Origin: Amoebidium appalachense
Taxonomy: Eukaryota; Protista; Ichthyosporea
Length of the DNA stretch: 64,000 nucleotides
NCBI GenBank assembly: GCA_963693365.1
Contig: CAVNZM010000003.1
Location: 2,858,606 to 2,922,605, forward strand
Direction: 5' to 3'
The notes under the pieces were generated by a model. It did no database searches. It was not told the origin of the DNA and saw only the letters and a list, made by a program, of their open reading frames with translations. Positions within the stretch are counted from its first letter, which is position 1; the number at the start of each line of letters is the position of its first letter. Made by a program: the position numbers and the translations under genes. Positions 1 through 64,000 of this stretch are shown piece by piece.

Positions 1-593
1 CTTTCAATTCTTTCCGTGTTCTTAGAGGTGGGCTGGCCACTTCAAACTTGTCGATGTGTATGTATTCTAAGCCTGACAAAGAAAGATGTGCCTATCATCG
101 TGGTAAAAAGGATTGTGATCGGCCATGGCAGATTCTTGGGGTAATTGAAAGATGTGAGATTCTTGAACTGATTGAAAGATGTGAGATTCGAAGGATGCGA
201 GATTCTTGAACTGCGCGGTCGCCAATGTAAACAGTTGGCAATGTAAACGGTGTCCTGCCGCGGTCGCCAATGTAAACAGTTGGACTAGTTAGGATAAGGC
301 AGAGTACAACTGAATCAAAATAAAGACAGAGAACGGGTAGAAAGGCACACGCGGCCAGGTTGCTTTTACTATTAAGGGATACGGGATCGCGCGGCTCGAA
401 TACTTTCTGGCGCCGCTCAGATCGATATCTATCTGGATTGAGTGGGCTTGATCTGCCTATTGGGCACCTAAGATCGTGTGGCCGAGCTATACCATGTACA
501 CACGGCATGCCACACACGTGTCCGGACAAAACTGCGCTGCACATTTTTCATGAAGGCGGGTTGTTTTCTAAATATATATGATAGGCACTCACA

Positions 594-914
594 ATGCTAA
601 CTTGCGCGGCTAACTACTGCAAAAATGACGAAGAAACAGTCTCTCCCAAAGATCCTACCAGGAAGATAAAGCTTTTTACTGTTCCATATGGATGCAAACC
701 AAATGTATTGGCTAGGAGGCATGCTTGGTTAAATGCTATAGGCAGGCAGGAGCAAACAAAGTATGAGCGGAAACAGCTGTTTAGCAATCAGGTGCAGATG
801 TCGATGGTAGGCACCCATTGGATGGTAGCTAAGGCTGTGGCTTTCTTGTGTAACATGCAAGAGCCACTATATAAGGATATGGTGGGGCCCAGGCACACCA
901 AAAGCATGGTGTAG
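594..914 (+). CDS. Internally deleted THAP/DDE_Tnp_4-type transposase (106 aa mini-ORF)
   Basis: N-terminus MLTCAANYC...LFTVP...RRHAWLNAIGR matches the first half of a THAP domain. C-terminus LFSNQVQMSM...VAKAVAFLCNMQEPL resembles the ISL2EU/Harbinger transposase tail (IL..vP.....i..VC..L.Nlq.PL). There is no THAP CxxHF and no DDE core. Confidence 0.6.
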   Translation: MLTCAANYCKNDEETVSPKDPTRKIKLFTVPYGCKPNVLARRHAWLNAIGRQEQTKYERKQLFSNQVQMSMVGTHWMVAKAVAFLCNMQEPLYKDMVGPRHTKSMV

Positions 915-995
915 AATTTTCGTTTTCGATTGCCTCTCCCTAAAGCCCCCTTCTCTGCTTTTTTTTTTTTTTTTTTTTTTTTTGTCTTTTTTTTC

Positions 996-1045
<50 letters not shown>

Positions 1046-1234
1046 AAAATATGAATGAATGCTTGCATGTATGTATTCGGCCAGTAGGGCTCCACTTTTC
1101 CTGTATAGGTAAATAATAATAATAATTGAAATTATTATGTATTTGTGTGCCAAGTACAACCTTGAGTCGTTCTCCCCCCCCCCCCCCCCCCCCCTCCCCC
1201 CTTCACACACACACACAACCACGCACACACGGAA

Positions 1235-1235
<1 letters not shown>

Positions 1236-1309
<74 letters not shown>

Positions 1310-1310
1310 C
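1236..1310. repeat. (GCAC)n microsatellite with flanking poly-C/poly-G in the element's intergenic spacer
   Basis: Seen directly; a (GTGC)n tract occupies the equivalent position in element 2 (~62008-62050). Confidence 0.9.
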
Positions 1311-1366
1311 GGATTTGCACACACGCACGCATGCACGCCCCCCCCCCCCCCCACACACACACGTGT

Positions 1367-1403
<37 letters not shown>

Positions 1404-1674
1404 GTAGGCACTTATGCAAACACCAAGGGGGGAGGAGGGACCGGGGGGAGGGGGGGGGGGGGGGGGGGGGGTAGGAAACATATGCAGGCACCAGGGTCTG
1501 GTACATTGCTCTCAGATTTGACACACGGTCTTCATTCATTCATTATAGGTTCACTAGATCGGTCAGAAGATTACTAACCCCCCCCCCCCCCACACACACA
1601 CACACACACATTATGAAAGATAACGTAAACAAAAAAAAAAAAAAAAAAAAAAAAAGGAAGGAAGGAAAACAGAA

Positions 1675-2886
1675 TCATTCAGTTGCATTTTCAGTGTTCG
1701 TGTTCTTCTTCTTCTTCTTCCACTTTTTGTGGTTTTCTGCCCTGTATGATGGATACATTTGCATCATAAACTTTTCATTCCAGGTAAAACTATACTTGTG
1801 TCCAGTAGGGTCTATTTGCTGTACAAATGCACGGAGCCCTACAAGGTCAGGCTTGTATGATTGGGCCAATTCTTCTACACTTGGTCCTACTATCCGCCTC
1901 TTTTTCGTACCATCTACATATTGCATCTCTATAACCTCTTCACCCTCATCATTACGTGCCCTTTTAGTTTTCACCACGTCTGCAGTTCTGTACTCTTGCA
2001 CCAACACACGTGCAGGTTTCATTAAGAGCTCAGGTTTTGCTTCTCCCTTTGGTACTTTCCATTCACATTTTTTGGCCGTACATATGCCCTCAGTAAACTG
2101 CCATATCTCTTTCATGGCAATTAGTGACCAAACCAGACAACTACCATGCGAGCAACCAGCACTGGGACCAATAGTACACACACATTTTACCTCCACTATC
2201 TCTTTCACTTTGTTATCTTTCCCCACAATGAATTTAACAACACAGAAAAAGAACCCCTTCCGAAACGAGCGTTGCACCATACCCCGCCACCAGAAATGGC
2301 AGTCACCCTCCTCACAGCCCTCCGGAAGATCATGTTTTGGATAGCAAAAGCCAAGTGTGGTTGCATCGTGTATGTATGCGCGGGCGTGTCCCCGCTTTAT
2401 CGCTTGTGGGTTGTTCCGAGCCACAAGGACCGTCCCCCCTCCCACCTTCATCGTAACCTTTTTGTGCACGAAATAGTCTTCCAAAACCTGCCGGTCACAA
2501 ACGGGCATTTCCCTCTGCTGATCAGCAGGATTGTAATCCCAAATTTCCCCCCCTGCCATATTGTTAATTTCCTGCATCAAAGATTTGTTTTTTGCTTTCA
2601 GTTCTTCCGCCCGCAAGCCATCTTCATCGAGAATTTTCTCACCTGTGTGTCTATCAACCCGTCCGGTGACGTGTTTGTGCACCCCACCTTGACCATGTTG
2701 ATCCAAACGTAAAAAATTTTCAAGGGCCCCTTCGATAAATCTGTAAGCACGCAAACGCCGTGGCGATACCGACTGGGAGCCGCGGGGAATGGGCGTCAAA
2801 TAGTCCACCGTGGCACCCAAGCTCGTGTATTTGGGTGCCTGTACGTGATTGGCTGGTGCAAAAAAATAATGTTTGCCTTCACGCAT
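1675..2886 (-). CDS. SWIM zinc-finger module (C-terminal part of the transposon accessory protein)
   Basis: CVCTIGPSAGCSH fits the SWIM CxCx(n)CxH pattern; it is preceded by RGMVQRS and followed by CTAKKCEWKVP, the CT...W..P motif typical of ISL2EU ORF2 SWIM regions. Confidence 0.75.
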   Translation of the reverse strand: MREGKHYFFAPANHVQAPKYTSLGATVDYLTPIPRGSQSVSPRRLRAYRFIEGALENFLRLDQHGQGGVHKHVTGRVDRHTGEKILDEDGLRAEELKAKNKSLMQEINNMAGGEIWDYNPADQQREMPVCDRQVLEDYFVHKKVTMKVGGGTVLVARNNPQAIKRGHARAYIHDATTLGFCYPKHDLPEGCEEGDCHFWWRGMVQRSFRKGFFFCVVKFIVGKDNKVKEIVEVKCVCTIGPSAGCSHGSCLVWSLIAMKEIWQFTEGICTAKKCEWKVPKGEAKPELLMKPARVLVQEYRTADVVKTKRARNDEGEEVIEMQYVDGTKKRRIVGPSVEELAQSYKPDLVGLRAFVQQIDPTGHKYSFTWNEKFMMQMYPSYRAENHKKWKKKKKNTNTENATE

Positions 2887-4052
2887 GCCCCAACATAATC
2901 ATCTGGTACTTCCCCCTGCACCCCTTCCTCCTCCACGTCCATCTCTCCATTCTCCTCCTCTTCCTCCCCCTCCTCCTCTACAGCCCCGTTTTCATACGTT
3001 CCATGTTCGTATTCAAGATCCCACCACTCAACCTCTTCCTCCACTGCTTCACCTCCTTTCCGTCCGATTTCGACTCTTCCTGCCCGTTCGTCCCCACCCT
3101 GCTTGTTTTCTGTGCTTTTAACGGGCTTTTCCTTCCCTCTTTTCCCCTTTCTGACCCGTTGTATATGCTGGAGCAGATCTGTGAACACAACCCCCGCAGC
3201 TACCGGCCTTCCCTCGCGTCCCCAGGCCCGGCACGCCTCACTTACAGCTGCGTGCAAAGTGCCCATGCCGATTCCCCTGAGCTTTTTCACATAATCACAG
3301 CCATTCACAATAGCAAAATAACGCAGTATTTCTATATCCCATCCGTCGAAGTTGTACTTCGTGCTTCTGGTAAAAACATCGGCGGGGGTTACAATCACTC
3401 CGTACAGTTTGGGAATGCGCACCGCATTAGCGGTCCCAGGGATGACCGCCGCATCCGCAATGCGCAGTTTGTATACAACCCGCGGGATGTTATACAGAAG
3501 AAGGTCGGCATCCTCAGTGACAACAGTGTGTGCCAAACCGGTACGTGCCATATAGGCAAGCTGGGGGTCTGCTTCGTATGGAGCTACTGTGTAATCGACA
3601 TTCTCATCTTTCAGTCTAAGGATGATTGCATGTAAAACTCTGTTATCTAACTCTGCAGCGCTTCTCCATTTGTTTTTAGTTACCTCCTCCTGTTTCTCTC
3701 TTTTTGTGGCTATTTCTTGGCGGGCTTTGACCACCTTTTCTGCACGGTCGTTATCAACTAGTTTTCCCTCTTTCAATCTGCGCCCATCAAACACATAGTG
3801 TGGCTGGACCCCTGCTAGCCTATACGTATTAACTTTGGACATAAAGTGATTTGCAATAGCTGCATATGTGTCGTCTGTGACTTTTTTGTCATCTATTTGC
3901 TGTTTGGCTACTGTGTCAGCGAAAACTGAAAAGGACTTGTGGACCTGCACCATCCCGTCAAAAGCAACTACCCCACGTTGCAACTCTGCAGTAACATCTG
4001 TGGCTTTTTCGGCACTAATGCCGAGTGCTGGGAGCAAGCCCTGCACACCCAT
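2796..4052 (-). CDS. EXO1/FEN1/XPG-family (PIN-fold) 5' nuclease, transposon-borne
   Basis: MGVQGLL start, VAFDG, YVFDG, APYEADPQLAY, VTEDADLL, helix-turn-helix GCDY..KLRGIG and FLHQ; all canonical acidic catalytic positions are present. ATG at 4052. Confidence 0.92.
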   Translation of the reverse strand: MGVQGLLPALGISAEKATDVTAELQRGVVAFDGMVQVHKSFSVFADTVAKQQIDDKKVTDDTYAAIANHFMSKVNTYRLAGVQPHYVFDGRRLKEGKLVDNDRAEKVVKARQEIATKREKQEEVTKNKWRSAAELDNRVLHAIILRLKDENVDYTVAPYEADPQLAYMARTGLAHTVVTEDADLLLYNIPRVVYKLRIADAAVIPGTANAVRIPKLYGVIVTPADVFTRSTKYNFDGWDIEILRYFAIVNGCDYVKKLRGIGMGTLHAAVSEACRAWGREGRPVAAGVVFTDLLQHIQRVRKGKRGKEKPVKSTENKQGGDERAGRVEIGRKGGEAVEEEVEWWDLEYEHGTYENGAVEEEGEEEEENGEMDVEEEGVQGEVPDDYVGACVKANIIFLHQPITYRHPNTRAWVPRWTI

Positions 4053-4632
4053 GGTAAAAGTGCATGTATTCAAAGTAGTTTCTTTTCATGAAAAAAATTC
4101 TTTCGGGTTGTGCGCCCTCTGCGTTAACGTGCGAACACAAAACTCGTTGTACGGTGTGGGTGCGTAGCAACGCGTTACGTAATCAGGGGGAAAAAATGCG
4201 GCGCCAGAAAGAAATCGGGGACCACTCAAAATCGCCGATCCCGTATCCCTTAATGGGCCGACTCAGTCTGTCTCAGACTTCACTGATGTGATCCCCGTAC
4301 TGGGACGGCTTTTTTATATAGCCCCCAGGTTTCGGATCAAGGCCCAGGATTGGTTCATCCGCGGCCAGCGCGGGTGGCAACATGCCATTCGTGATTCTGG
4401 TGCGGTCCGAGCCAGCGAGTCAGACTTTCGTCCTATATATGCAAACCTCTTATTGGTCCACTTCGTTTATGTGGTATGCAGCAATAGAATCATATATGGT
4501 TCAATTCTTAGGTCAGAGTGAGTCCTATTGGTGCGGACATAATATTTATGTGATATTCATGACAAAGCACGAATCGTGTGCTAGTAGATCACATTCTTTA
4601 GTAAACATGTACAGTTCATGTGTACAGTTGTT

Positions 4633-17482: not shown

Positions 17483-17495
17483 GGTGTGTGTGTGC

Positions 17496-17541
<46 letters not shown>

Positions 17542-27396: not shown

Positions 27397-27437
<41 letters not shown>

Positions 27438-27737: not shown

Positions 27738-27772
<35 letters not shown>

Positions 27773-28161: not shown

Positions 28162-28193
<32 letters not shown>

Positions 28194-35100: not shown

Positions 35101-36138
35101 GCAGCTACAAGGTGTGTGTGTGGGGGGGGGGGAGGGGTTGAGTTTGGGTGGGTGGGGGGGGGGGGGGGGGGGGGGGTAGGGGAGGGGGGGAGAGGGATGG
35201 GTGGATAGGTGCGTGGGGGTGGTTGGGTGGGGGATTGGGGGGGTGGGGGGAATGGTTGGGTGGGTGTGGGTGCAGTTGTGTTCAGATTAGCGTGGCCGGT
35301 GATCAAGATCAGAGACCACGAGAAGCAGGGCATGGCCGAGGGGGGAGTTGCCTGATTGGTTGTGTTGGCTGAGTGGTTGTGTTGCCTGATTGGTAGTGTT
35401 GCCTGATTGGTTGTGTTGGCTGATTGGTTGAATCCATGTGCTGCCTGATTGGTTGAATCCCTGTGTTGCCTGATTGGTTGAATCCTTGTGTTGCCTGATT
35501 GGTTGAATCCCTGTGTTGCCTGATTGGTTGAATCCCTGTGCTGCCTGATTGGTTGTGGCTGTGTGGCTACTGCACATGCAGCATGCATGGCTGCTGGTTG
35601 TGTGTGCTGACCTGTGTTCATCAGCTGTGTGAGACCTATCCCCGCATCCTGTTTGTGCCGGCAAAGGCCAGCGATGCCCTGCTGCAAAAGGTACACAATG
35701 GGGGGTGGGTAGTTATAAGGCAGCAGCCACACAGCCTGTTTGGGATGGGTTCTGGAGGAGATGGTACATACGGGAAAGAGAGTGCAAGAGAAGCACACGT
35801 ACAAATACACAGCATGAAAAGAAGTGAAAGAGAAGGAAAAGGAGGCACTCATATGGCTATTTACATCTATGGAGGGGGTTAGGTGGACAGGAGGGGGAAG
35901 GGGGGGGGGGAGGGGGGGGGGAGGAGGAGGAATGCCCTGGTGCAGAAGATACACACTACACAGGGGGGGGGGGGGGGGGGGGGGGGGCGGGGGTGGGGAG
36001 AAGGGGGATTGCGGGGAGGGGGTTTAGAAGGTGGGATGGGACTGACGACTGGGTGGGAGGGAGCAGTGTGCATCATTCCGAAGCAAGCACAGGCTGCCAG
36101 TGCTTAGCTACTACCATGCAAAGACAAAGGTGTGGGTG

Positions 36139-36170
<32 letters not shown>

Positions 36171-36207
36171 TGTGTGCAAGCGCGTGCGCGCACGTCAGTG
36201 TGTGTGT

Positions 36208-36262
<55 letters not shown>

Positions 36263-36334
36263 TGCGTGCGTGTGTGCGTGTGTCGTGTGTGCGTGAGTGT
36301 GTGCGTGCGCGCGCGCGCGCGTCAGTGTGTGTGT

Positions 36335-36410
<76 letters not shown>

Positions 36411-37699
36411 TTAGCTATTATCATGCACAGACCAAAGTGTCGGTGGATGGGCGCACGAGCGAGTTGTGCATTCTCCGGTGCTGGTGTGTATTTGTGTGTG
36501 GGTTTGTGGTTGTATGTGCCTGCACACACATGCACACGGCCAAGAGTGTGTGGTTCATGAACATGCTTCAGGTGTGCTCTGCTGTTATGTGGCATGTGGA
36601 TGGGTCGTCGATAGTTTCTATTTTCTCGCTGTGTCTGCACTTTGCTGGCTATGTGCTGATATCGTAGGAGCAAATCGCAACTGTGCCTGTGGGGGTGTGC
36701 ATGCCCGGTGCACTGTTGCTGACCCTGCATGCCCGACCAGGCCAGCATTGCACGCTGCAGCCAGCCCCAGGTGGGGCTCAAGTCACGGCGCTGTGAAGAG
36801 GACGAGAGGATGGTGCAGGTGCTGAGCCATGCATGGGGAGGTGTAAGGGGTGTGGCTGGTGCTGATTGGTGTTGCAGCTGATCTTTGGGCCCAGCACTGG
36901 GAGGGAGCACTGCATAGTCGATGCACGGCCATACGTCAACGCCATGGCTAACAGGTGCGTGCCCTCGGGGGAGGGGGGGGGGGTGGGGGGGGGGGGGGGG
37001 AGCAGGGCTGAGTGAGTTGCAGGGCCAGCGGTGCGGGGTACGAGAACCCCGAGTGGTACGTGTGCAGCTACCGGTTCATGGGCATCGACAACATCCACGT
37101 CATGCGCAGCGCACTGGCCAGACTGCTGGACGGTATGTGCCCTGCCTGGCCCTGTGCTGTGGGTGCTGACTGGGGCTGCAGGGTGCCATGCCGTGGACGG
37201 CAGCAGCAGCAACTGGCTGGGGGCCATGCAGGCCAGTGCATGGCTGCACCATGTGGGCCTGGTCCTAAGTGCCGCAGTGCTGGTGGCTAGGTGCGTGCAA
37301 GGCATGTCATATTGGGGCTTGCGGGTGGCATGCCACGGCTAGGCCAGGCCATGCGGGGAGCATAGAGTGCACGTGATACACTGGGGGTGCATGGTCAGTG
37401 GGGTTGTGCAGGTGCATGCTAGGGGCCCCATGCATCATGTGGGGCCGTGCTTAGCTGGTGGCCTTCCTTTTATGTTGGTCATGTGATAATGGGCCAAGCA
37501 GTTGCATGCTAAGTGGGGCCAAGCAGGTGCATTGCTAATTGGGGCCAAGCAGGTGCATGCTAATTGGGGCCAAGCAGGTGCATGCTAATTGGCCAAGCAG
37601 GTGCATGCTAAGTGGGGCCCACACAGGGCGGTGGCGTGTGATGGGGCCAGCATGCTGGTGCACTGCAGCGATGGCTGGGACCGCACGGCACAGCTGACC

Positions 37700-45300: not shown

Positions 45301-46627
45301 CCCAATCAGATACTTGAGTAATATCGAGTTGAAGGCTGAACAACATTAGCTTAAAAGAGCTAATAAACTCCCATAAATAGCTGGTTTAGCTCATATGACT
45401 CTCAGATAATCCAATTCCATGACTTAGCTGCTTTTATGCAAGCGATATACTATATTTCTTCGCATAGAAAGATGCTGTTTGTGCCCGCCATAACTAACAC
45501 TAAACCGATTTTTGATGCCCTCCTCTCCACAAACGGCTTGAGCTGATTGACCGAAATGGAAGGAGATCGGAATGCAGCGTAACTATGGAACACTAATAGA
45601 ACACTAAGAATGTGTATATGCTATGGATATTGCACATGTCATACACGTTGAACGAGCCACGATTTCAAAGATATGCCTAATGCATATGTGCGGATATCTA
45701 TACTATGTGCATATGCTGTGCACAGACTGAGTGTGTACACGTATTAAGTACCATCAAAGGAACACCAGGATGTCTAAACATGATATGTGCTGTGCACCTT
45801 CGTAAATGCCATAATATGATGTACGATACAGGCTACTACTAGTAGCATATCTGTGCATGTCACAGGTGTGGTTCTGTCCATAAGACATCCCGTGGCTATC
45901 ACATGGATATGAAATACATTATGAACTATTTCCACCAGGGAATTAAAGAAAAAAATTTGCCTACGAGGTAGTCTTTTGTATTTTCGGCGCCATGATACAA
46001 CTGTACATTCCAGGCATATGTACTCAAAGGGCATTGATAGCATAAAGTTTCGGGTGATATGTAAAGCTAGCTGACCACATGGCTGTCTACTGCCACGTTT
46101 TGCACAAAGACTTCTCCTGAGAAACAGCAAATTTTGAGCATCATGTCGCTTCCACTGAGGTCTGGTAAGTTAGTTAGTAATACAGACAACTTTGAATATT
46201 ACAGCCACTGCCGGTCCAGTCTGATGTCTGTGCACAGCACACATGCATGCTCAGGATGCACATAACATGTATGCTGGAATCTGCAGCACATTCAGGCAAT
46301 ATTTAGTTTGTAAACATGAATTCTTTGCAGGAGAATTAGATAGCCCCGTTGGAGTGAAATTGTGTGTTGCGAGTGTGCTGTAAACTTCGTAGTAGTAATA
46401 TGTTGCAGGCCTTGGTGTGTTTGATGTGTGTGCAAAGTTTCAGGAGTGCTAGCATTTTTATTTAGGGAGCTGTAGTTGTTTTATATTCTGTGGGATATGC
46501 CATATGGATATATTGATGAGTGTGAGTTATATCTAGTCCGAAATGGGCGGCAATTGATTTGGTCTTTGTGATCTGGGGGTTTTAGCCACTTGTGAAAAAT
46601 TTTCATTGGTTGATGTGCAGCAAAAAT

Positions 46628-48344: not shown

Positions 48345-50941
48345 CACGGCCATCTAGAAACACGGCCATCTAGAAACACCAGGCCGTCTAACGCGATTAA
48401 CATTCCCGGGATAATGACATCTTAACCAAAAAAGGCTATTCTGCATTCCACAAGGGGGTGCGGCCTACTTTTCATGGCAACCGCGTATCCAGACGATTAC
48501 GTAATCGTGCATTGAATTTGAAGATCCGAATCGGGTCACACCACGGCCCATAATGCAGCGCTTATCATTTGTAAATATTATATACTCAAATCGAATCGGG
48601 CTGAAAGAAAAGCCCGACGGGTATCGCGGAGAAAACTCAGGCTGCTGCACTTGCCGTACAAACAAAAGCATGAGTAAGCTGTTTTTCTGCTCCACTTTTT
48701 TTGTCTTGTTGTTGTGAGCACTTTGAGCCACTTTGGGCATATAATGAGAACACAATAATCTATCTAACATATACCTTCATTTGCAAGGATGGCATACGGC
48801 AACTGTTATGGCTGGTAGACCCGGATCCGTTCCGGTTTCTCTCTGTTCCCGCCCTCCCTCCTCTCACTTTTTGGCGAGCGGACCTCAAGCGTTAGCGTGT
48901 TGCTGCTCAGTCCTCGCAACTGTACGGGTTTCCACTTTTCGGTGAAAGCCGCTACTATATGGCATTGCATGGTGCAAAGCTCTTCATTATAACAGCAGCA
49001 TCGGCAGCAAAACACCTTGGAAATGTGGTGAGTACAAGAGCTCTCTTGTCGCTCCGTAACCCCTAACAACCGGCACAGGTCTCCCGGACGGCCCTGTTTG
49101 AGTTTCTTTATGTCCCTTGTTACCAAGTATTTTTGTCACAACTCTGACATAAAAGGATAACCGTTGTATTTTCTATTGTCTTTTTGCTGACCGCTCTATT
49201 ATTCAGACCAACTACCCATGTACCTGGGTTCAAACACGACATCTCTATCTCAACGTTTTACCTAAGCCTAAGCCATGTTTTTCCAGTTACTGTTTTGGTT
49301 GGAATGTTTGATACACGTGTGTAAGTTCTTGCCTCTCTCTGCACACACACACACACACACACCCACACACACACACACCCACACACACACACACACACAC
49401 ACGCACCCACACACACAACACCCACACCCACACACTTATCCCAAAGCTCACACACACACACGTACACACGTACACACACACACACGCACAACACATACAT
49501 TCACTCTGTATCTATGAATTTATGTGGATATATGTATATGTATATACGTATTTATATATGTCCAAACTGCACATGTTGAAAAACAACGTCACTACACTCA
49601 GGGCTACACCTGCACTTCATCGTGCAGGTTATCAGCTAAAGTTGCTTGGTTATTCAACATGCTATGCCCGTTTGTTTTTATATTCACAACAGGTTGTCTC
49701 TACTTTTGCACTACATCTACCCGTTACACATCTATTTTAGGGTGTGGTACTTAACAAATTGGCGGTGGTAAGGGGTTGCGCTGGCGGGGAGGCGGGTAGG
49801 AGGGCAAAGGCTACGTAGTGACCATCGGATGTGAAATGGACATGATGTCCGGCTAGTATGGGGAAAGGGAGCGTCCCGTTTTCGGTTTCCTTAATTTTGG
49901 CGTGGGTTTGAACACAAAAACTCGACGCCACACCGGTTGTGGTCTTATGGGCTGACCAGCACGGATGGTGTAGAATTGCTTGGCACACGGCATCAATGAA
50001 GTTAGTGTCTGCAAACCTAATTTGGTCTGCAAGGACACGAGCATGCTCCTGCTCGAGCATAAGACGCTTGCTTCGCTCCTCTGCCTCTCGTTCGCTAAGT
50101 TCCCGTGCACGTTTCTGCTGTGCTTCACGCTTACGTGCGTCTTTCTCCGCTCGTAACTGTTGCTTGCGCTCCTCCTCCGCCAACCGTAGTATAGCGGCTT
50201 CTGCCTCGATTCTGTGTGCCTCCCTTTTCGCTGCTGCCATTCTCATGTTTATGCTCCTTTCACCTAGAACGATGGTTTTAGTTGGGTCCTTAGGGTCAGA
50301 GAAGATGCGAGGGGCAATGGGTGGGTCGGAATTGGGATCGCGAGAGAAGATCGCTTGCTTAAGGGGCCGGTTCCCTCGCGTTGGATCACAGGACCCCTTG
50401 GGAAAATAATCTGCGTCAACGAAATGCTTGACGCAGACGTGAGGCCTACCATCTTTGTATGTTTCAAAGAAGCATGCCCTGCTACCCCATACATCCCCTG
50501 CCTGAAGGCAACTTTCATACCACAACTGCCACAGCTCTGGCTGCTTTTCCGGGTCGGGAAACCTAAAAGTAGAAACGGTAACGCTCTGGCCGACACCGGC
50601 TTGCGGGTTTACATTTTCCTTACCCCTGTCCTTTCGAGTCTCACTAGCATAGTTACTCTTATAGTTGTATACAATGCACTTGTTCCCCATGATCTCTAAA
50701 GCGGAAACTAACCATCCCTAAAAAGATACAACGCCATGGCATGTTAAACGTCAAATAAAAATTAATGAAATTTAACTCGTTTGTAGAGCACGTTGCTGCC
50801 GAAGGCGAATAAATCTGTGGAGATCATTTTCCCGTCATTTTAGTAGGCCGCACCACCCCCGAGACCAAAAAACTTGCGCAAACAAATGAGCTAATTCCGA
50901 TGCCGTTGCCTTAGACGGCCTGGTGTTTCTAGATGGCCGTG
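48345..50941 (-). mobile_element. P-element-like transposon (31-bp TIR, 8-bp TSD), internally deleted
   Basis: Perfect TIR CACGGCCATCTAGAAACACCAGGCCGTCTAA at 48361-48391 / 50911-50941; TSD GTTCTAAG at 48337-48344 and 50942-50949; empty site at ~54339; THAP ORF inside. Confidence 0.9.
49737..50690 (-). CDS. THAP domain + coiled-coil protein (N-terminal part of a P-like transposase)
   Basis: MGNKCIV..., FRFP...LWQLW, VCVKHF and PP (THAP; the expected second Cys appears as Tyr), then an E/R/K/A-rich coiled coil; no RNase-H core seen. Confidence 0.75.
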   Translation of the reverse strand: MGNKCIVYNYKSNYASETRKDRGKENVNPQAGVGQSVTVSTFRFPDPEKQPELWQLWYESCLQAGDVWGSRACFFETYKDGRPHVCVKHFVDADYFPKGSCDPTRGNRPLKQAIFSRDPNSDPPIAPRIFSDPKDPTKTIVLGERSINMRMAAAKREAHRIEAEAAILRLAEEERKQQLRAEKDARKREAQQKRARELSEREAEERSKRLMLEQEHARVLADQIRFADTNFIDAVCQAILHHPCWSAHKTTTGVASSFCVQTHAKIKETENGTLPFPILAGHHVHFTSDGHYVAFALLPASPPAQPLTTANLLSTTP

Positions 50942-52471
50942 GTTCTAAGTCATTTCTTCATATTTCCATAGGCAAAAATGTGGGCCGCACTATATAATGA
51001 GCTTGCGCGGCCCCAGGGAGGTCAGTTGCGGCGCCACTGAGCGTGTTTAGGTCTCTTTAGGCCCAATTTTTTAGCTAGGTTTTTTAAAACTCTAGTCCCC
51101 GTTTTTCGCGCTGTTGTTCGCTTTTTCTCTAGTTTATTTTGCCCAGGAGCGCGCGCTTAGCTTCGGCAGCATCTTGTATGAATTTTGCGTGCGCGCCGTT
51201 GCGTTTTAGCTGGTTTTCGGACGTTTTTTTTTTTTTTTGCGGTTACGTTTTTCCCGCGTTTTTTGTATTTTGCAGTCTTTGTTTTCAAGTTTTCGTGCTC
51301 TAGTCTGGTTTGTGAGCATTGCAATGGCCCCTCCTCCTGCTCTGGTCGCCAAGAGGGCCGCTCTCCTCGAAAAGCTTTTGGAGATCTCTACCGATGCGGA
51401 CGACGTAAGTCTCAAAAGTCTGGCCGTTTTGTAGTCCAACGCCCTCCCCTGGAACAGCCTGCCGGCAGAAACCGTCAACAGTGTGGTTTCAGCCCTCAAG
51501 GCGCGCTTGGTGGCTTTTGATGACCCTGAGATGGTCGGTTGAAAAGTCACCGACCAGCTTCACTTGCTCTGTCGCACTCCTCGCAGCGGCCGTGCCTCAG
51601 GCTCCCCCCCACCTGGGTTGCCCTCTCCCCAGCGGCGTTCTGATGGTGTAGACGTCCAAAAGCAGCTGCAGGCGCTTTCTGCCCAAGTGCAAGCCCTCTC
51701 TGTTGCCCAGTCTGGTCGCCCCAAGAAGCTTTCTGTCGGCGTCCTGCTGAGCACGCTGTCTGCGCGGGCAAAGGGCAAGGAGCCTGTCTATGTGTCTGAC
51801 ACGGGCAGTGAAGACACCCCATCGTCGAGTGAGGATTCTTCTTCCAGCAGCAGTGGCTATGGTCGTTCCTCTCGCAGCCGTCGTTCCTCTGGCCGTTTCA
51901 AACCCAACCCCAGTCGTTATCTGCTGTCCAGCGGCACCAAAGTCAACCTGCGCGTCAAAGAACGTCTGGCCCCTTCCTACCTCAAGAGCACCTTGGCTGA
52001 CCAGGCCTCGGTCACTGCGGCTGTCCACTCGGCGGATTGGGTCAGCTACTGCAACAAACGGGAGGCTCTGACGCTTGCCCGTATGCTGGATCTGCTGCTG
52101 GCTGCCGACCCTAAGGCCCGCAAGGCGTCGCCTGCTGTTGAAGTTGGTGTGCGCCGACTGCTGGCTGTGCAGACTGCTGATCAGTCCAACGAGGACTGAG
52201 CTGTTGGAGAGCAGTTTGAGGAGCTCCCTGCGCGCAGCCTACCCCTGCCCCCTGCCTTGGCCACCCGGGCTGTTCGTCAAGCCAAGACCCTCGCCGAAGT
52301 CACCCGGGCTCGGCGCGGTCCCGGCAGTGGCGGCGCCGGTCAATCGACCCCTCCGGGGGCCGGTGCCTGCTTGTGAGATTGATCCACAGGCACCGGCTCA
52401 TGTATCCCATTGCTGGGGCTGGTAAAGACGACGCTGGAATAAGAAGCACTATCCTCACTTGGAAGTCCTGC

Positions 52472-53960
52472 TTAGGCTAGCAACGCGTCTGGGTGTATAT
52501 ACTTAACCGCCGTTTCCATTTCCACTGACATGAGACATGAGGGCACTACAATGGTGGGTAGGAGGGCATCACCGTACGCAACAATAGTGGGAATGATGGA
52601 TAGGTGCCAGTCTTGCTCCGCAAACCCATAGCCGACCTTGTATGTGTTGTTCATGTCTGTGACCGTGAGAAGTTTCTGACCCGCACGCCCGTTGGTTATG
52701 CGCAGTTGTTTCTCGTCGTCTCTGAACAGACTCTCAGAATCCATGAAGTCTGTTTTTCTTTCTACTTATGAGTGCGTTACGATGGTGTCTGCAGGGAGAA
52801 GTAGACTCTCAGAGTCCAGGGAATGTGTTTTACCTTCCTCACATGAGTGCATTTTGATGGTGTCTTGCAGGGGGGATTAGACTCTCAGAGTCCGCTGACA
52901 ATGGTTTTATATCCCATAGACGTTCACCAGTTCCTCCACCTTATCAAACCAGAATTCATCTTCTCCTCCGTGAGGGCGGAAACGCGCGCTTTCAAAAGTT
53001 CATTTTGTTTGCGGAAAGTGAGGTTGTAACTGTGCTATTTGGCACGGCGTTCGAACAAATTGAACCACCCCTCACCCGGAAGCTCGTCTGCTGTCTTGAT
53101 TTTTTGGCGTTACGCTCAGCAACTTGAACGTCCCGTGCAGACCTGAGAACTTCAGCACGAGAAACCCCTAACCCCCTCCCAGCCAGGAACACCAGCCCAC
53201 TAGCAAGGCCAATCTCCTCATCTGCTGTTAGAATGGGCTTTCTTGTGCCGTCACTCTTTACTCGCCCCAGCAAGGGGATAGATTACTTGCAGTGTCGTGT
53301 GTAGCTGCCTAGGCTGCACGCACAAACACGTGTGCTCTCCAAGGAGGCACACTTTAGATGGCAGGCCATCACCACAGCCACTCAAGGGAGGGTGGGCGGG
53401 AAAAACAAAATGCTTGACTAGAGAAAGCAACCGTTTACGGGCCTCAGGAGGCCCTGCCAACTTGCTAGACTAAGGACACAATCTGCTGAGGAGCAGGGCC
53501 AGCGACTGAGAGGCCTACGAATCTGCAGGCTAGCGGTTTATATACACGCAGGATATGGCTCACAAACATCCGATTGGCTACAGAGGAATGTAAAGACCAA
53601 ATATGGCTACACTTAAACAGGACCAATAACACATAATGGGAGAAATTGTAAACTTTACAACGTTGGGTAATCCACGACAGCCTATATATATAGTTGTCTG
53701 TATAGTAAAATGATCGGACCTGTAGGTGCAACTTCCCATGAAATGGGAATGATTTACTGATGTCGACTGGTAATCGGCAAACACGGAGGCAAGAAGCAAA
53801 GGGAAGGGAAGGGAAGGAAACACCGGTCGAACGCCGTCATTATAGTTCATCTCAGGTTTAAACCAAAACCCTGCCGGCACTGCCGGCAGAACACACCTGC
53901 CTTCCAATCTTGTTAAACAGACCGATTTCATCCATGTACACAGGGAACCGGAGAATTATT
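52472..53960 (-). pseudogene. Fragments of pogo/Fot1-like (CENP-B HTH + DDE_1) transposase
   Basis: KPILTADEEIGL...GRGLGVSRAEVLRSA (HTH_Tnp_Tc5-like), IIPTIVAYGDALLPTIV, and YMDEIG near 53925; heavily disrupted. Confidence 0.55.
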
Positions 53961-53984
53961 TTAGCCGGCTTAGATACAATAATA

Positions 53985-54483
53985 AGTTTGTAAACATGTT
54001 TTCTTTGCAGGAGAATTAGATAGCCCCGTTGGAGTGAAATTGTGTGTTGCGAGTGTGCTGTAAACTTCGTGGTAGTATAATGTTGTAGGCCATGGTGTGT
54101 TTGATGTGTGTGCAAAGTTTCAGGCTGCTAGCATTTTTATTTAGGGAGCTGTAGCTGTTTTTATGTTCTGTGGGATATGCCATATGGATATATTGATGAG
54201 TTTGAGTTATATCTAGTCCGAAATGGGCGGCAATCGATTGGGTCTTTGTGATCTAGGGGTTTTAGCCACTTGTGAAAATTTTTCATTGGTTGATGTGCAG
54301 CAAAAATTCCATTTTGGTAGATTTCACGGATTTGATAGGTTCTAAGTCATTTCTTCATATTTCCATAGGCAAAAATGTGGGCCGCGCTCTATAATGAGCT
54401 TGCGCGGCCCCAGGGAGGTCAGTTGCGGCGCTACTGAGCGCGTTTAGGTCTCTTTAGGCCCAATTTTTTAGCTAAGTTTTTGC
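53985..54483 (+). repeat. Copy B (uninterrupted, 3'-truncated) of the dispersed repeat
   Basis: Near-identical to 46305-46627 + 48306-48344 + 50950-51080 and to 58260-58757. Confidence 0.9.
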
Positions 54484-54890
54484 CCACCCACCACACCTTT
54501 GCCTATTTAGGCACTAGGCTACGTTTTTTGAGCATGTTTCTGTATGACATTTGTCATTCTTTTCATTGCTCCTGTGGAGCACACCTGTGCCTGCTTGTGA
54601 GATTGATCCACAGGCACCGGCTCATGTATCCCCTTGCTGGGGCTGGGAAAGACGACGTTGGCATAAGAAGCAAAATCGGCAGACAGGCCTGTGGTTTACC
54701 GTTTTCGATAGATCATACATGAGCTAACACATGCTTACATGCTTGCCGCGCGCCTATTTGTGCTTATAGGGTTACCAGGAAGACCATGCAGTATGCCAAA
54801 TTTCACGAACCAACACCTGCAAATAAGAAGGGAAAACATGTGTCTGGAGATTGGGACAAGCAGAAGAGAAATAGATAACGGACTCAGAAC

Positions 54891-55087
54891 GAACGTCTAT
54901 GGGATATAAAACCATTGTCAGCGGACTCTGAGAGTCTAATCCCCCCTGCAAGACACCATCAAAATGCACTCATGTGAGGAAGGTAAAACACATTCCCTGG
55001 ACTCTGAGAGTCTACTTCTCCCTGCAGACACCATCGTAACGCACTCATAAGTAGAAAGAAAAACAGACTTCATGGATTCTGAGAGTC
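54891..55087. repeat. 197-bp inverted duplicate of 52729-52925
   Basis: Reverse complement read directly; contains recurrent GACTCTCAGAGTC quasi-palindromes. Confidence 0.9.
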
Positions 55088-57240: not shown

Positions 57241-59010
57241 ATGTGCATGTGCATGTGCATGTGTGTGGACGTCTGTCTCTGTGTACATGTAAATTATCTG
57301 CTGTAACGTTCGGAAACGTAATGTTTTGGGTTGATCAAATATGGGCCAGATTTACATCGTAAGAATTGGGTAATAGATTAAATACCTTCGTTATTGTGGT
57401 GAACGTGAAAATCGAGGAGTTCTTGGGCAATATATCCTCTTCCTCTTCTTCTTCCTCATGGTCAATGCCCTCTTCCTCACTGTGGTCGCTGTCATCAGCA
57501 TCCTCACTGTAACATTCATCGTCCTCACTTGAGTTGAGTGGGTCTGCATCAACCGGCTCCTCAGTGAATTCGTATGCGGCCTGTGCATCTGTACCGTATA
57601 TTGTTTTTGTGCATGTGCGTGTGCGTGTGTGTGTATGCACGCATGTGTGAGGGGGTGTGCGTGTTTATTGTTTTGTTTTTTTTTGTTTTTTTTTTGGGGG
57701 GGGGGGGGGGAGTCATGGTGAGGAACCGTTTGACATATTATGAGATAGGATGACCGATTTGCCAATGGGGTAGACTATTGTAAGAGAGGTATTATGAGAT
57801 AGCATGACCAATTTGCCAATGGGGTAGACTATTGTAAGAGAGGTAGTTTGTCGCTCAGCCTGAGAAAGAGACATAATGAAGAATTAGAGTTGGTGGGTGG
57901 GTGTTGGTATGTACTGGGTAGTTTTCGAAGCGGAAACGCACGTCATGCAAAGATCTAAAGCATTGACCATGTCATTCTGCAACAGTGCCTGGCCTGACAG
58001 CACACACAATTCATCACCAGGGCAGGGTAGGCCACGGTGTGTGTATGAGAGGTATTGTGTGTTTGAAAGGGGGGATTGGGGGGGAGGGGGGGGGGGGTTG
58101 TCGGTTCGGGGATGGTATTGGCTTATGCAAGTTACGCAAATCCTGTCCTTCAATTGTTCATTTTACTTTTTGCAAGATCAATAAATAAGAAAACCAGATA
58201 CAAGATTATAGGGTTATGGTTTTCTTTCTTTCTTTCTTTCTTTTTTTTATTTTTTATTTAGTTTGTAAACGTGTTTTCTTTGCAGGAGAATTAGATAGCC
58301 CCGTTGAAGTGAAATTGTGTGTTGCGAGTGTGCTGTAAACTTCGTAGTAGCAGCATGTTGTAGGCCTTGGTGTGTTTGATGTGTGTGCAAAGTTTCAAGC
58401 TCTAGCATTTTATTTAGAGAGCTGTAGCTGTTTTTATGTTCTGTGGGATATATGCCATATGGATATATTGATGAGTTTGAGTTATATCTAGTCCAAAATG
58501 GGCGGCAATTGATTTGGTCTTTGTGATCTAGGGGTTTTAGCCACTTGTGAAAATTTTTAATTGGTTGATGTGCAGCAAAAATTCCATTTTGGTAGATTTC
58601 ATGGATTTGATAGGTTCTAAGTCATTTCTTCATATTTCCATAGGCAAAAATGTGGGCCACGCTATATAATGAGCTTGCGCGGCCCCAGGGAGGTCAGTTG
58701 CGGCGCTACTGAGCGCGTTTAGGTCTCTTTAGGCCCAATTTTTTAGCTAAGTTTTTGCAACTCTAGTCCCCGTTTTTCGCGCTGTTGTTCGTTTTTTCTC
58801 TAGTTTTTTTGCCCAGGAGCGCGCGCTTAGCTTCGGCAGCATCTGGTAAGAGTTTTGCGTGCGCGCCATAGGGGTTCAGTATTAATGACGTCACAGCGGC
58901 GATCGCTCCGAGAAGGAGGGCAAGGGTCCGAAATGTGCGTTCGCACATCGATTCACGAAAACGAAAAGGCCACGAAAACAAAACAAGCACACGAAAAGTA
59001 AACGTAAAAA

Positions 59011-60625
59011 ATGGGGTTTGATAATCTTTTACCAGTGGTTGGCCTGACGGAGAAAAAGAAAAAGGGGTGCACTTTTGCCGAGCTCTCTAGTTTACTCTGT
59101 GACAAGCGGGTGGGCATTGATGCTAGTGCTATTCTTCACAAGGCCCTTAGTAGTGTACCTGCAAAGTCGAAGGAAAGCCATGAACTAGCTATGTTGTTGC
59201 ACACATCTGACAGCCCACACACAATAGTGTTACCAAAAGCAATAGTGGAAAAGATAACCGACAAGTTCAAAAAAGAAATATACTTCTGGCAACATGGATT
59301 GGGAGCTACCTCTGTTTTTGTCTTTGATGGGCAGCTCATGCCTGCCAAACAAACAGAGAAAAGCAACCGGTTAAAGGCGTGCGAAAACGCGTATAATGAA
59401 GGGAAACGACTTCTGGGCACCCTTTGTAACGCCACTTCGTCGGAGGAGAGTCAGAAAATACAGGAGCGGGTTGACAGCCAGTTTAAACAGTCCCACTTTG
59501 TCGTCTGGTCTATGGCACGAGTGGCGTTGGCAACATGCCAAGCGGAGGGTATAGAGAAGGTGGTGGCCCCTTACGAGGCGAACGCACAGCTCGCGTTCAT
59601 GGGGCAGAATAAGATAATTGACGTAATGGCGGTGGACGACAGTGATTTGCTTGCATATACATCCTCACCCATACTCATCGGTGGTCTGTCGCGGGGCAAG
59701 GTCGACCAAAAAACAGATTCCCTCACTCGTTTTCAATGCTACCTCGTCGATCACGCTCGCGACATTTTTAAAGTACAGACATACAAAAATAAACAATATG
59801 ATTTCTCAGGCTGGAATATGGACGATTTGCTTCTTTTTGGCATTGTTGGTGGTTGTGATTATTTGAAACTAGTGGGTGTGGGTGAGGTTGGCGCATACGA
59901 CTTTGTGAGGAAAGTGAAACAAAAAGGGGACACGCACTCGTTAGACCCATGGCTGGAGTGTGTGCAAGATGTTCTTGAGAACTCGTCACTTCGCCTTGCC
60001 CCCAAAATGCACGCACACGAGCTTGATACTGTGAGTGTGTTCACGGCATTTGAACGGGCGCTCGTAGCCTTCCGCTCCCACATAGTGCTGAATCCTGTTA
60101 CGCTTGAGCACTGGCACGTTTGCTGGACACCAACAGAGCCTCGCCCAGAGGTGTTGGGCACACCAATCGATGCCAACCTTTTGGACTGCTATCTGACCGG
60201 CCATATTGTTCCGCACACTCTTGAATTTCTACCGCTCAGTGGCACGGGAGAGAGTGGGCGGCCTGATATATATAACAACCGGGTGTGGGTCTATGGGCAG
60301 GACAAGCTTCTGGCAGAGCTACCCGTCGTTCCAGATGAGGTAGGGTATGGTTCCACACATAGATATGATGGTAAAGGCCGGGGGGGGGGGGGGGGGGGGG
60401 GGGGGGAGGAGAAGCCCCGGTGGAAGGTTGGGGGGGGGGAGAAGGGGAGTAGTTAAGGGAGTGAAGCTCGAAAAGGAGGGGGAGGGGGAGGGGGGGGGGG
60501 GGATAAAGATGGGAGAGTGAAGGTAGGAAGGTGTGTGGGAAAGAAGCTCGAAGGGGAGAGAGGTAGAAAAGAAAATGAAGGGGGGAGTGGAGGGGGGGGG
60601 GGTGTAGATAAGAGTGATGGTTTCT

Positions 60626-60658
<33 letters not shown>

Positions 60659-60879
60659 AACGAGATAGATATGTCAGTGCAGTTCGGAAGGAGAGGGGCC
60701 TGGGATTCTTGGGTAAAGGGGAAAAGGGGTACAGAAGAGATGAAGGCCGAGGGATGGAGGACTATGGACCCGGGGAAGGGAGGAAGGAGAGGGGAAGGGG
60801 GGTAAAGGGGAGGTGAATGGGAGTTGGAGGGGGGTGGGGAGAAGGGGGAGGGGGTATTGGGAATACATAAAGACTGACA

Positions 60880-60910
<31 letters not shown>

Positions 60911-61780
60911 CATCTTCGTCCCCTTTCCCGCGCTTTCTCCCTACACACACTGTGAATATCCACACTACACACGTGCTTGCGCGGACACCTATATACACAT
61001 GTGCAGGTAATCATGCAGCACTTCCCCCTCAAGAATTTTGTTCGCGGTTGGCGGCGGGCAATGTCGTGCAGTGAGTACCTGGCGGTCTCCTACTGCAAGG
61101 ACGGCCGCAAGGTACTTCTGCGAGGCTTAGTGCCCCGTTCCATGGCCACAGACTTCTATGTCGCCTATCTGCATTTGGAGCTGGAGGAGGAGAACAACGT
61201 GGTGAAGAAGGTGATAGATGGTTTGTGTCAGTGTCCACAGGCTCGCATTGCATGCATACACCAAGCTGCACTCATACACACAAACGCCGATATTGTTAGG
61301 CTCTCTGGTCGGGTCCCCGGGGATGAACCACAGTTGTTTGCAAGCACTAGCCAACAAAAACGGTGGGGGGTTCCATCGGGGCAGATGTCGAAAGATATAA
61401 TAAAACCCATCGAGCAGTATATTTTTCAAAGAAGGGAGCCTCGCATGCCTACAAAAAAAGGAAAGGTTGGGGAAGGTGGTGGGGTAGGTGATGGCAGGGA
61501 ACGGAACGGGGGTGGGGGTGAGGGTGAAATGGATCTTGAAGGTGATGGCCAGAGTGGAGGGGGGTCTGGGCAAAAAGATAGTGGCAAGTTTAAGGGGAAG
61601 GAAGTAGGGTGTCATATGAATCCTATTTTCTTGCGCGAGAATCCATTGCTGAATGCTAGTGTGGCCGTGAATGCAGATAATGTTAAATCGATGATGAAAT
61701 TAATAGATAATATAAATGATGTGTATGCCAGAGAGGCCCGGGCCGCAAAGGCATCTGTACTCGCTCGAAAGAAAAGGTAG
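59011..61780 (+). CDS. EXO1/FEN1/XPG-family nuclease fused to a SWIM module (predicted 700 aa after removing intron 60340-61006)
   Basis: MGFDNLL, GIDAS, FVFDG, APYEAN, VDDSDLL, GCDYLKLVGVG; a phase-0 GT..AG intron joins in frame to RGLVPRS...CQCPQARIACIH...STSQQKRWGVP. Confidence 0.88.
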
Positions 61781-62008
61781 ATCGATGTAAAGAGATAAGT
61801 CTCTTTTATAAATTAGTAACGCTAGTAGTAGTGCTATATGGTAACCATAACCGGGCCCGGTTAAGGATAAATGGTGTTTGTGTTCTGTATAAATGTAATG
61901 AAAATTGTAACTAGGCAGTGCTGTGCACTAGGTTATGTATGCCATGTGCTGTAATGAATGAAGGTCTACTGTTACCACAACTACTGAGGTGGCAAGGTCT
62001 TGCGTCTG

Positions 62009-62051
<43 letters not shown>

Positions 62052-62403
62052 CCAGGAATGTGTAGTGGTTGTGTGTGGGAACAATAGGCGGGAGGAGGGG
62101 CCTGGGGGGGAGAGGGGGGTAGGGGGGGGGGGGGGAGACAGGAAGGTTTCGTTTTTTTCCCTCTCTGTCGGGCTCGTGTTTTTCTAAAGGGTTCCTTTCC
62201 CCTTCCCCCTCTCCCCCTCCTCCTCCCCCCCCCCCCCTTCCCCCCGTTTCAGTGAAAAACATAAACACACGCCATTTGTTTATGTTGGTACTTTTATATA
62301 TACATATTTTTTCACGGGGACTGGGTAACTGAAGGGGGGGGGGGGGGAAGGGGGAGGGACGGGGAAGGGGGGGGGGGGCTGGAGAGGACACAAACAATTA
62401 GCT

Positions 62404-62649
62404 TTATAATGGGGCTTCTTCCTCCCAGTGCACGAGTTTGCCTTGGAAGCGTGTAAGCCCAAAGCAAACTTGGACAACCTGGGAGTGATTGGGCACCATG
62501 GTGATGGGAACAGTATCCGTGAGGATCTTGTTCTCCTTGTTCTTAAACCACGAACTAACAACCTCTGCACTGTGCCTTCGAATAAGCACCTGCTTACAAC
62601 CAGGCCCAGCAGTGGCCTTGCAGTGGTCTGCTGCACAACGAGAGGGCAT
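62404..62649 (-). CDS. Internally deleted THAP/DDE_Tnp_4-type transposase (81 aa mini-ORF)
   Basis: MPSRCAADHC...SSWF (THAP-like start) fused in frame to KENKILTDTVPITM...QVVQVCFGLTRFQGKLV (ISL2EU-type transposase C-terminus). Confidence 0.6.
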   Translation of the reverse strand: MPSRCAADHCKATAGPGCKQVLIRRHSAEVVSSWFKNKENKILTDTVPITMVPNHSQVVQVCFGLTRFQGKLVHWEEEAPL

Positions 62650-64000
62650 AGTGTGGGCACCCCTTAGGGGTATACCTTTTAAGATTCGCAACAGAAGGTA
62701 AAAACTAAATAACAAGTAAACATACAATTTAGTTCCCAAGTTTTACGTTTAAAATTTTTCTTTTTTTTTAATTAGCCGCGTAACGTGGTGCACACATGGT
62801 TTCGTTTCCGTTTTGCAAACAGGAAAGTCTCTCGCGGCCCCCAATCCGTGCTTGCCCTCCTTCTCAATTAGTGACGTCATTAAGACCGGACCCCTATTGC
62901 GTTTTTAGCTGGTTTTCGGACGTTTTTTGCGGTGTCGTTTTTCCCGCGTTTTTGCATTTTCCAGTCTTCGTTTTTAAGTTTTTGTGCTCTAGTCTGGTTT
63001 GTGAGCATTGCAATGGCCCCTTCTCCTGCTCTGGTCGCCAAGGTGGCCGCTCTCCTCGAAAAGCTTTTGGAGATCTCTACCGATGCGGACGACGCAAGTC
63101 TCAAAAGTCTGGCCGTTTTGCAGTCCAACGCCCTCCCCTGGAACAGCCTGCCGGCAGAAACCGTCAACAGTGTGGTTTCAGCCCTCAAGGCGCGCTCGGT
63201 GGCTTTTGATGACCCTGAGATGGTCGGTTGGAAAGTCACCGACCAGCTGCACTTGCTCTGTCGCACTCCTCGTAGCGGCCGTGCCTCCCCCCACCTGGGT
63301 CGCCCTCTCCCCAGCGGCGTTCTGACGGTGTAGACGTCCAAGAGCAGCTGCAGGCGCTTTCTGCCAAAGGGCAAGCCCTCTCTGTTGCCCAGTCTGGTCG
63401 CCCCAAGAAGCCCTCTGCCGGCGGCCTGCCGAGCACGCTGTCTGTGCGGGCAAAGGGCAAGGAGCCTGTCTATGCGTACGACACCGGTGGTGAAGACACC
63501 CCATCGTCGAGTGAGGATTCTTTTTCCAGCAGCAGTGGCTACGGTCGTTCCTCTCGCAGCCGTCGTTCCTCTGGCCGTTCCAAACCCAGCCCCAGCCGTT
63601 ATCTGCTCTCCAGCGGCGCCAAAGTCAACCTGCGCGTCAAAGAAAGTCTGGCCCCTTCCTACCTCAGGAGCACCTTGGCTGACCAGGCCTCGGTCACTGC
63701 GGCTGTCCACGCGGCGGATTGGGTCAGCTACCGCAACAAACGGGAGGCTCTGACTCTTGCCCGTATGCTGGATCTGCTGCTGGCCGCCGACCCTAAGGCC
63801 CGCAAGGAGTCGCCTGCTGTGGAAGTTGTTGTGCGCCGTCTGCTGGCTGTGCAGACTGCTGATCAGTCCAACGGGGACTGGGCTGTTGCAGAGCAGTTTG
63901 AGGAGCTCCCTGCGCGCAGCCTGCCCCTGCCCCCTGCCTTGGCCACCCGGGCTGTTCGTCAAGCCAAGACCCTCGCCGAAGTCACCCGGGCTCGGCGTGG

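Follow-up and report, generated by a model that had tools for sequence, protein, structure and literature searches.

ISL2EU transposons, which belong to the PHIS superfamily, are defined by an AT target site duplication (TSD), a transposase uniting THAP, helix-turn-helix (HTH) and DDE (DDE_Tnp_4) parts, and a second open reading frame (ORF) of YqaJ type (PMC4482050; see also PMC9179366). They insert at A|AT|T, and their terminal inverted repeats (TIRs) usually start with GG (PMC4482050). The families described by Han et al. come from animals only (2015, PMC4482050; 2014, PMC4122938), and no tested role for the second gene appears in the literature consulted here. Kolobok elements, with a TTAA duplication and RR..YY ends, include lineages (KolobokE, KolobokD) marked by different accessory nucleases, one of them lambda-exonuclease-like (PMC9587614), and AcademX elements encode a nuclease and have TSDs of 3-4 bp (PMC10045372). 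Here we analyse a transposon, hereafter element 2, of the ichthyosporean Amoebidium appalachense, located in a stretch of 64,000 nucleotides (the window; contig CAVNZM010000003.1, positions 2,858,606 to 2,922,605), in which a gene of the fold of EXO1, a 5'-3' exonuclease and flap nuclease (PMC4066805), is predicted to be spliced to a SWIM-like module. We consider it likely that this TIR-bounded, AT-duplicated insertion, which contains no transposase, is a non-autonomous element derived by deletion from a family that resembles ISL2EU but uses EXO1 where animal ISL2EU uses YqaJ. Kolobok and AcademX already provide precedents for transposons that bear a nuclease; the EXO1-SWIM form is apparently undescribed. 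In the portions of the literature available to us (including PMC12730594, PMC5753468, and PMC5718144), no EXO1/XPG-SWIM gene is described in ISL2EU or Harbinger elements, and a prior Repbase annotation may exist.

The insertion and its nuclease gene

Element 2 occupies positions 58870-62895 (4,026 bp) and interrupts a host repeat. Its features, together with those of a related element near the other end of the window (element 1), are listed below.

58868..58869, no strand: left TSD (AT), read from the sequence
58870..58894, plus strand: left TIR, beginning with AGGGG and matching the right TIR at 22/25 positions
59011..60339, plus strand: exon 1, an EXO1-type nuclease of 443 amino acids (aa), assigned by Pfam, alignment, AlphaFold 2, Foldseek, and PDB numbering
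60340..61006, plus strand: predicted GT-AG intron of 667 nt, with six G/C runs of 10 or more
61007..61780, plus strand: exon 2, encoding a SWIM-like zinc-finger module (C-x-C...C-x-H with W-x-x-P after it) with a Gly-rich tail and no YqaJ domain
61781..62403, no strand: low-complexity gap of 623 nt between convergent stops, containing a tract of 11 GTGC units (62008-62051)
62404..62649, minus strand: THAP-like remnant of 81 aa, with the first two Cys and no C-x2-H
62871..62895, minus strand: right TIR
62896..62897, no strand: right TSD (AT)
50941..52318, plus strand: uninterrupted paralogue of the host repeat, with the empty site at ~51198-51199
371..4254, no strand: element 1 with its outer bases; perfect inverted ends of 18-19 bp and a duplication readable as AT, TA or TTAA
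594..914, plus strand: THAP remnant of element 1, 106 aa, matching PF05485 below cut-off (E 2.6e-4); after it, a GCAC tract of 19 units (1235-1310)
1675..4052, minus strand: EXO1-SWIM gene of element 1, with 7/7 acidic residues and a frame shift between ~2800 and 2900

The insertion of element 2 is real, because its TIRs are flanked by AT and both flanks run on continuously in the paralogue at 50941-52318 (94.9% identity over 257 nt on the left and 93.5% over 1,121 nt on the right). Element 2 was inserted by a TIR/TSD mechanism, and the claim of the first-pass annotation that a 4,026-bp unit had moved and split a repeat is borne out, with exact boundaries. The same annotation described 25-bp TIRs and an AT duplication. 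AT is indeed found on both sides, but the TIRs are imperfect, as 22 of their first 25 bases pair as inverted repeats, and the empty paralogue carries GT where the filled site implies AT. Scores of at least 21/25 were obtained for just 5 of 20,000 random pairs of window positions, a control in which element 2 itself, read in slightly offset windows, scored 21/25. Relative to the empty paralogue, the AT reading requires one substitution (score 107), versus a 2-bp indel plus a substitution for a TA duplication with GGGG ends (score 100); with a single paralogue, AT is the better but not a certain reading. Both TIRs also hold a perfect palindromic TGACGTCA octamer (58882-58893 and 62872-62883), which resembles a CRE/ATF site.

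Exon 1 matches XPG_I in Pfam (5.9e-11) and, below the cut-off, XPG_N (6.6e-4), and its database homologues are EXO1 proteins of ~30% identity or less. A single-sequence AlphaFold model was unusable (predicted local distance difference test, pLDDT, of 36), while a model built on a 65-row EXO1 alignment reached a pLDDT of 82.6. With the latter, Foldseek placed human EXO1 at the top (9e-18; PDB 5v09, 3qea) and FEN1 next (2e-10), the best viral match being at 6e-13. The model superposes on human EXO1 with a template modelling (TM) score of 0.80 by target, at 18% identity. In this model the nuclease has the EXO1 fold, although a model guided by EXO1 sequences depends on the sequence match itself. 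By XPG_N, XPG_I, and fold, element 2 belongs with the EXO1 subfamily of Rad2/XPG nucleases. The antisense ORFs lying over the nuclease genes of the two elements gave no Pfam match.

The acidic active-site set of EXO1 comprises D30, D78, E150, D152, D171, D173, and D225 (PMC5499597), and element 2 keeps six of these seven residues. The remaining one, equivalent by PDB numbering to human D152, is N191 (codon 59581-59583), in the motif APYEAN to which the first-pass annotation had drawn attention; it is Asp in all 63 aligned homologues and in element 1. Because D152 is a metal ligand in EXO1 (PMC4066805, PMC11574390), its replacement by Asn probably impairs the activity of the element 2 nuclease. 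Thus, the fusion that had been called apparently intact does have an open frame, but it has lost a metal ligand, and this copy is more damaged than had been thought.

The frame is open over the join of 59011-60339 with 61007-61780, which gives 700 aa with no stop, and the 667-nt intron is a probable link between the nuclease and the SWIM-like module. The splice pair chosen is one of 27 GT/AG pairs leaving the frame open. Two features favour it: a W...(L/M)PV...F motif, unbroken in element 1, is regained by this join, and the six G/C runs of the intron (none is found in the exons) resemble the inter-exon DNA of host genes in the window, where 4, 2, and 5 such runs occur. The C-terminal modules of the two elements align with an E-value of 2e-5 (0 of 5,000 shuffles as good) and share the W-x-x-P that follows the motif. 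The alignment of SWIM and W..P motifs noted previously therefore stands, but the Pfam SWIM profile (PF04434) finds no match in exon 2. We call the module SWIM-like from its C-x-C...C-x-H motif, kept in elements 1 and 2 and in two metagenomic proteins presented below, and from its ESM Atlas neighbours. For exon 2, the first match is a SWIM-type cluster (0.94), with PF04434 on 28% of its members. The C-terminal ORF of element 1 recovers SWIM clusters plus clusters with Viral_alk_exo (13-50%) and YqaJ (40%), so that the module bears a weak resemblance to YqaJ-linked SWIM clusters.

Element 1, the absent transposase, and outside relatives

Elements 1 and 2 have the same convergent layout and nucleases that are 24-28% identical at the protein level. 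No DNA similarity was found between the two elements, TIRs included, in agreement with the earlier remark that their TIRs and proteins differ strongly. In each element AT forms the outermost part of the inverted match; the ends of element 1 can also be read as Kolobok-like, that is, as GG..CC flanked by TTAA, and no empty site for this element exists within the window.

The 81-aa ORF of element 2 gave no Pfam match and is THAP-like solely through its similarity to the 106-aa ORF of element 1 (28% identity, E 2e-4). None of 5,000 shuffles was as good, but the best of them scored 53 against 54 for the real pair. The "THAP mini-ORF" of the first-pass annotation is thus a convergent ORF that does resemble its counterpart in element 1, but it is a remnant: only the first two Cys of the C2CH ligands are present, and no C-x2-H-[FW] occurs on the minus strand of element 2. 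The ORFs of both elements lack the closing C-x2-H and carry AG|GT donor-like sites ahead of intron-like DNA. The 81-aa ORF probably represents the first exon of a lost transposase and reads on into the intron that followed.

A DDE transposase linked to these TIRs, on which the first-pass annotation had made its reading depend, was searched for with Pfam and was absent from 156 ORF translations of the window (20 + 120 + 16), a set that leaves out short or low-complexity ORFs outside the elements. There is also no room for one, because the gaps between convergent stops measure 623 nt in element 2 and 760 nt in element 1, versus 426-552 aa for the THAP-bearing ISL2EU transposases among the Table S2 rows listed (PMC4482050). 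The 623-nt gap is the likely site of a transposase deletion. Two of the window's four GCAC/GTGC tracts of five or more units sit in these two gaps, in the same orientation, a pattern noticed after the fact (50 of 1,266 700-bp windows contain such a tract); it fits a deletion between repeats and an assembly collapse alike.

Outside the window, the EXO1-SWIM fusion was found in 2 of 14 long matches, 10 of which were inspected. Both proteins, P0132 (819 aa) and P0131 (785 aa), are metagenomic, single-member Joint Genome Institute (JGI) records from other samples, on contigs of 4,967 and 5,604 bp, respectively. A profile made from elements 1 and 2 alone ranked P0132 first of 145 proteins (E 0.0048) and P0131 third, at a non-significant E of 3.5. 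The SWIM module was absent from all 120 shorter EXO1 matches and from 80 metagenomic EXO1 loci (the top-ranking 80 among 405 loci, drawn from 26 of the 64 parts of the collection). A word-based homologue search with the SWIM alignment retained none of 1,003 candidates; scans of metagenomes with that alignment, and of viral contigs with the SWIM alignment, the nuclease alignment or P0132, returned no locus. A giant-virus FEN1-like locus (L081) and an archaeal FEN1-like one (L082) were considered and found to be unrelated.

As elements 1 and 2 share their layout and the SWIM module at 24-28% identity, and as P0131 and P0132 share the fusion, there is support for the view that EXO1-SWIM is not a one-off. 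Whether the four fusions have one origin was addressed with trees of the nuclease domains only, drawn from subsets of the 120 matches and with no outgroup. A quick tree (45 rows) kept elements 1 and 2 apart. Of two careful trees, one with 30 rows paired the two elements at 94/68, with a warning of long branches, and one with 28 rows paired element 1 with P0132 at 97/97 without grouping the four fusions. Constraining the four to one clade gave a likelihood 0.75 log units better (approximately unbiased, AU, test, p 0.505), and the element nucleases lie 4-9 changes per column from everything else. By these trees, one origin is neither shown nor rejected; the nuclease monophyly which the first-pass annotation wished to see tested is recovered in the 30-row tree but not in the free 28-row one. 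The shared architecture is a stronger argument for one origin than the trees.

Several loci in Ptychodera flava and Porites lobata encode divergent EXO1-like proteins (P0002/P0135-P0140 and P0109/P0141-P0145), which have a common, non-host C-terminal part and no SWIM. They may represent another family of mobile EXO1 genes, one found in animals.

Affiliation and competing explanations

Element 2 resembles ISL2EU in its 2-bp AT duplication (read against one paralogue, which has GT there), its short TIRs, its size in the range of ~4-5 kb, and its two-gene plan, in which a THAP-led gene is accompanied by an accessory exonuclease gene. The AT duplication and a SWIM module that weakly resembles those of YqaJ and Viral_alk_exo clusters are what point to ISL2EU. 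The nuclease differs, as it has an EXO1/Rad2 fold, lies N-terminal to SWIM, and shows no YqaJ match; this copy also differs in having a THAP-like remnant in place of a transposase, as expected of a deletion derivative. With human EXO1 (5v09, 3qea), element 2 shares the predicted fold and six of seven acidic residues, but it is only 18% identical, has Asn for D152, and carries SWIM in its C-terminal half instead of the host tail. AcademX offers the likeness of a DNA transposon with a Rad2/XPG-family nuclease; that nuclease is of XPG type and part of the transposase protein, and we know of no SWIM or THAP partner for it.

Several observations weigh against an ISL2EU-like affiliation or against a single family. 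No transposase is linked to the TIRs of either element, and the AT duplication was read against a single empty paralogue that has GT at its site. In the AT reading, the TIRs start with AGGGG in element 2 and TAAGGG in element 1, not with GG, and the target of element 2 is C|AT|T, which agrees by half with A|AT|T. The resemblance to YqaJ-linked SWIM has a recognition score of 1748, under the tool's bar of 2300. The SWIM of P0131 is not significant against the element-derived profile, the comparison with P0131 and P0132 is limited to protein sequence, and none of 200 bootstrap trees (0%) groups all four fusions. Element 2 appears to follow an ISL2EU-like plan, yet it cannot be filed as a member, having neither YqaJ, nor GG ends, nor the full A|AT|T target. 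The first-pass annotation had proposed an old, diversified ISL2EU-like clade and not a one-off capture. The fusion shared by the two elements with P0131 and P0132, the AT TSD, and the weak likeness of the SWIM to YqaJ-linked modules go in its direction, but a single clade is neither shown nor rejected by the trees, and no DDE transposase tied to these TIRs was found among the 156 ORF translations of the window.

Under another explanation, which we consider unlikely, the EXO1-SWIM cassette would sit in a different THAP-DDE superfamily or in several, with no single ISL2EU-like clade. Element 1 could then be of Kolobok type, as its TTAA flanks and GG..CC ends permit, and Kolobok lineages carry various accessory nucleases, although none of EXO1/XPG type appears among those listed for them (PMC9587614). 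The lack of DNA similarity between the two sets of TIRs and the failure of the trees to unite the four fusions would also be accommodated. Element 2, however, has a 2-bp duplication that cannot be read as TTAA, and its empty site favours AT, which is the outermost inverted match in both elements; their layouts are identical, and one clade is not rejected by the AU test. The chance that the two elements captured host EXO1 fragments independently, as passive, Pack-type cargo, seems very slim. The best database matches are host EXO1 proteins, at ~30%, and one origin is not proven by the trees, but host EXO1s lack SWIM (0/120 matches, 0/80 loci) while two elements and two outside proteins share the fusion, and nucleases separated by 4-9 changes per column from all else do not look like recent captures. 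That element 2 derives from AcademX, which also encodes a nuclease (PMC10045372), is hardly credible: TSDs of 3-4 bp are expected there in place of 2 bp, the SWIM module and the separate convergent THAP-like ORF point elsewhere, and no Academ transposase was found among the 156 ORF translations of the window.

The missing transposase could itself be explained in other ways. There is little chance that a transposase-free state is normal for an old lineage of nuclease-carrying helpers or parasites that rely on a transposase supplied in trans while retaining a small THAP-like ORF. Both elements of the window, 24-28% alike, do lack DDE while carrying the nuclease and a THAP-like ORF of similar size, and repressors encoded by internally deleted elements are known from the KP element (PMC8700633). 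A KP-like repressor role for the mini-ORF was nevertheless judged weak, as its zinc ligands are incomplete. The sample amounts to two elements, in each of which the THAP ORF is without the last zinc ligands and its AG|GT donor-like sites are followed by intron-like DNA; each also has a damaged nuclease gene (D152N in one, a frame shift in the other), and a third, unrelated THAP element in the window is also without transposase, so that decay may be common here. It is a little less probable still that the transposase is missing through an assembly artefact, with collapse between microsatellite or homopolymer tracts inside each element. Such tracts do occur, as each gap holds a long GCAC tract together with 4-6 G/C runs, but the window contains no N, the rest of each element reads as coherent coding and intron sequence, and true recombination between the same tracts would look alike.

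If element 2 is a deletion derivative of an ISL2EU-like family, as we favour, the THAP-HTH-DDE transposase would come from a full-length sibling; bound to the element 2 TIRs, it would cut the element out and reinsert it at AT, with a stagger of 2 bp. The accessory nuclease would be held on the transposition complex by its SWIM module and there trim 5' ends or flaps, either of the non-transferred strand or at the donor break, where resection would promote repair that uses the sister copy. EXO1 and the YqaJ/lambda-exonuclease proteins degrade DNA in the same 5'-3' direction, which suggests either trimming of the non-transferred strand or donor-break resection. Element 2 would probably have lost its transposase gene, from the first intron on, through a deletion that may have run between GCAC tracts and that may predate or postdate the jump. 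A bolder version strikes us as distinctly unlikely: in an old, mostly non-animal PHIS branch, the 5' exonuclease recruited by a SWIM adaptor would be exchangeable, with EXO1 here and YqaJ in animals, and would serve as a required second enzyme of cut-and-paste transposition, the nuclease gene being split in this genome onto mobile, transposase-free units that persist as helper modules of a two-part system.

Neighbouring features and significance

The host repeat interrupted by element 2 (58255-58869 and 62898-64000) has further copies at 46297-46627, 50941-52318, and 53985-54483. A degenerate ORF of some 330 codons, for which no Pfam match was convincing, lies in this repeat and is possibly the 5' gene of a retroelement; the repeat was struck by at least two different TIR elements. 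One of these, a third TIR element at 48345-50941 with an 8-bp duplication, which we take from its TSD length to be a P- or hAT-like non-autonomous element, sits in the same repeat; its THAP ORF (49740-50717, minus strand; PF05485 E 6.5e-4) has C-x2-H-F and a charged helical tail, and no transposase match was found for it. A 2.36-kb unit at 52729-55087, with perfect 197-bp TIRs made of ~75-bp subrepeats and no Pfam match, includes the host-repeat part at 53985-54483. Two broken reverse-transcriptase fragments of long interspersed nuclear element (LINE) type, 96% identical, lie at 4549-5572 and 9051-9939. Host genes with homopolymer-rich introns are found at 15791-17593 (a beta-trefoil lectin ORF near a CBM20 starch-binding ORF), 26342-29009 (squalene/phytoene synthase), and 33191-37287 (a myotubularin-like phosphatase).

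With an empty paralogue nearby, this copy of element 2 is a good record of an insertion, but its lack of a transposase and of one metal ligand makes it a poor reagent. If two unrelated 5'-3' exonuclease folds do share the SWIM slot, the conserved need would probably be for 5'-end processing and not for a particular fold. Divergent multi-copy "EXO1" genes in eukaryotic assemblies may be transposon cargo.

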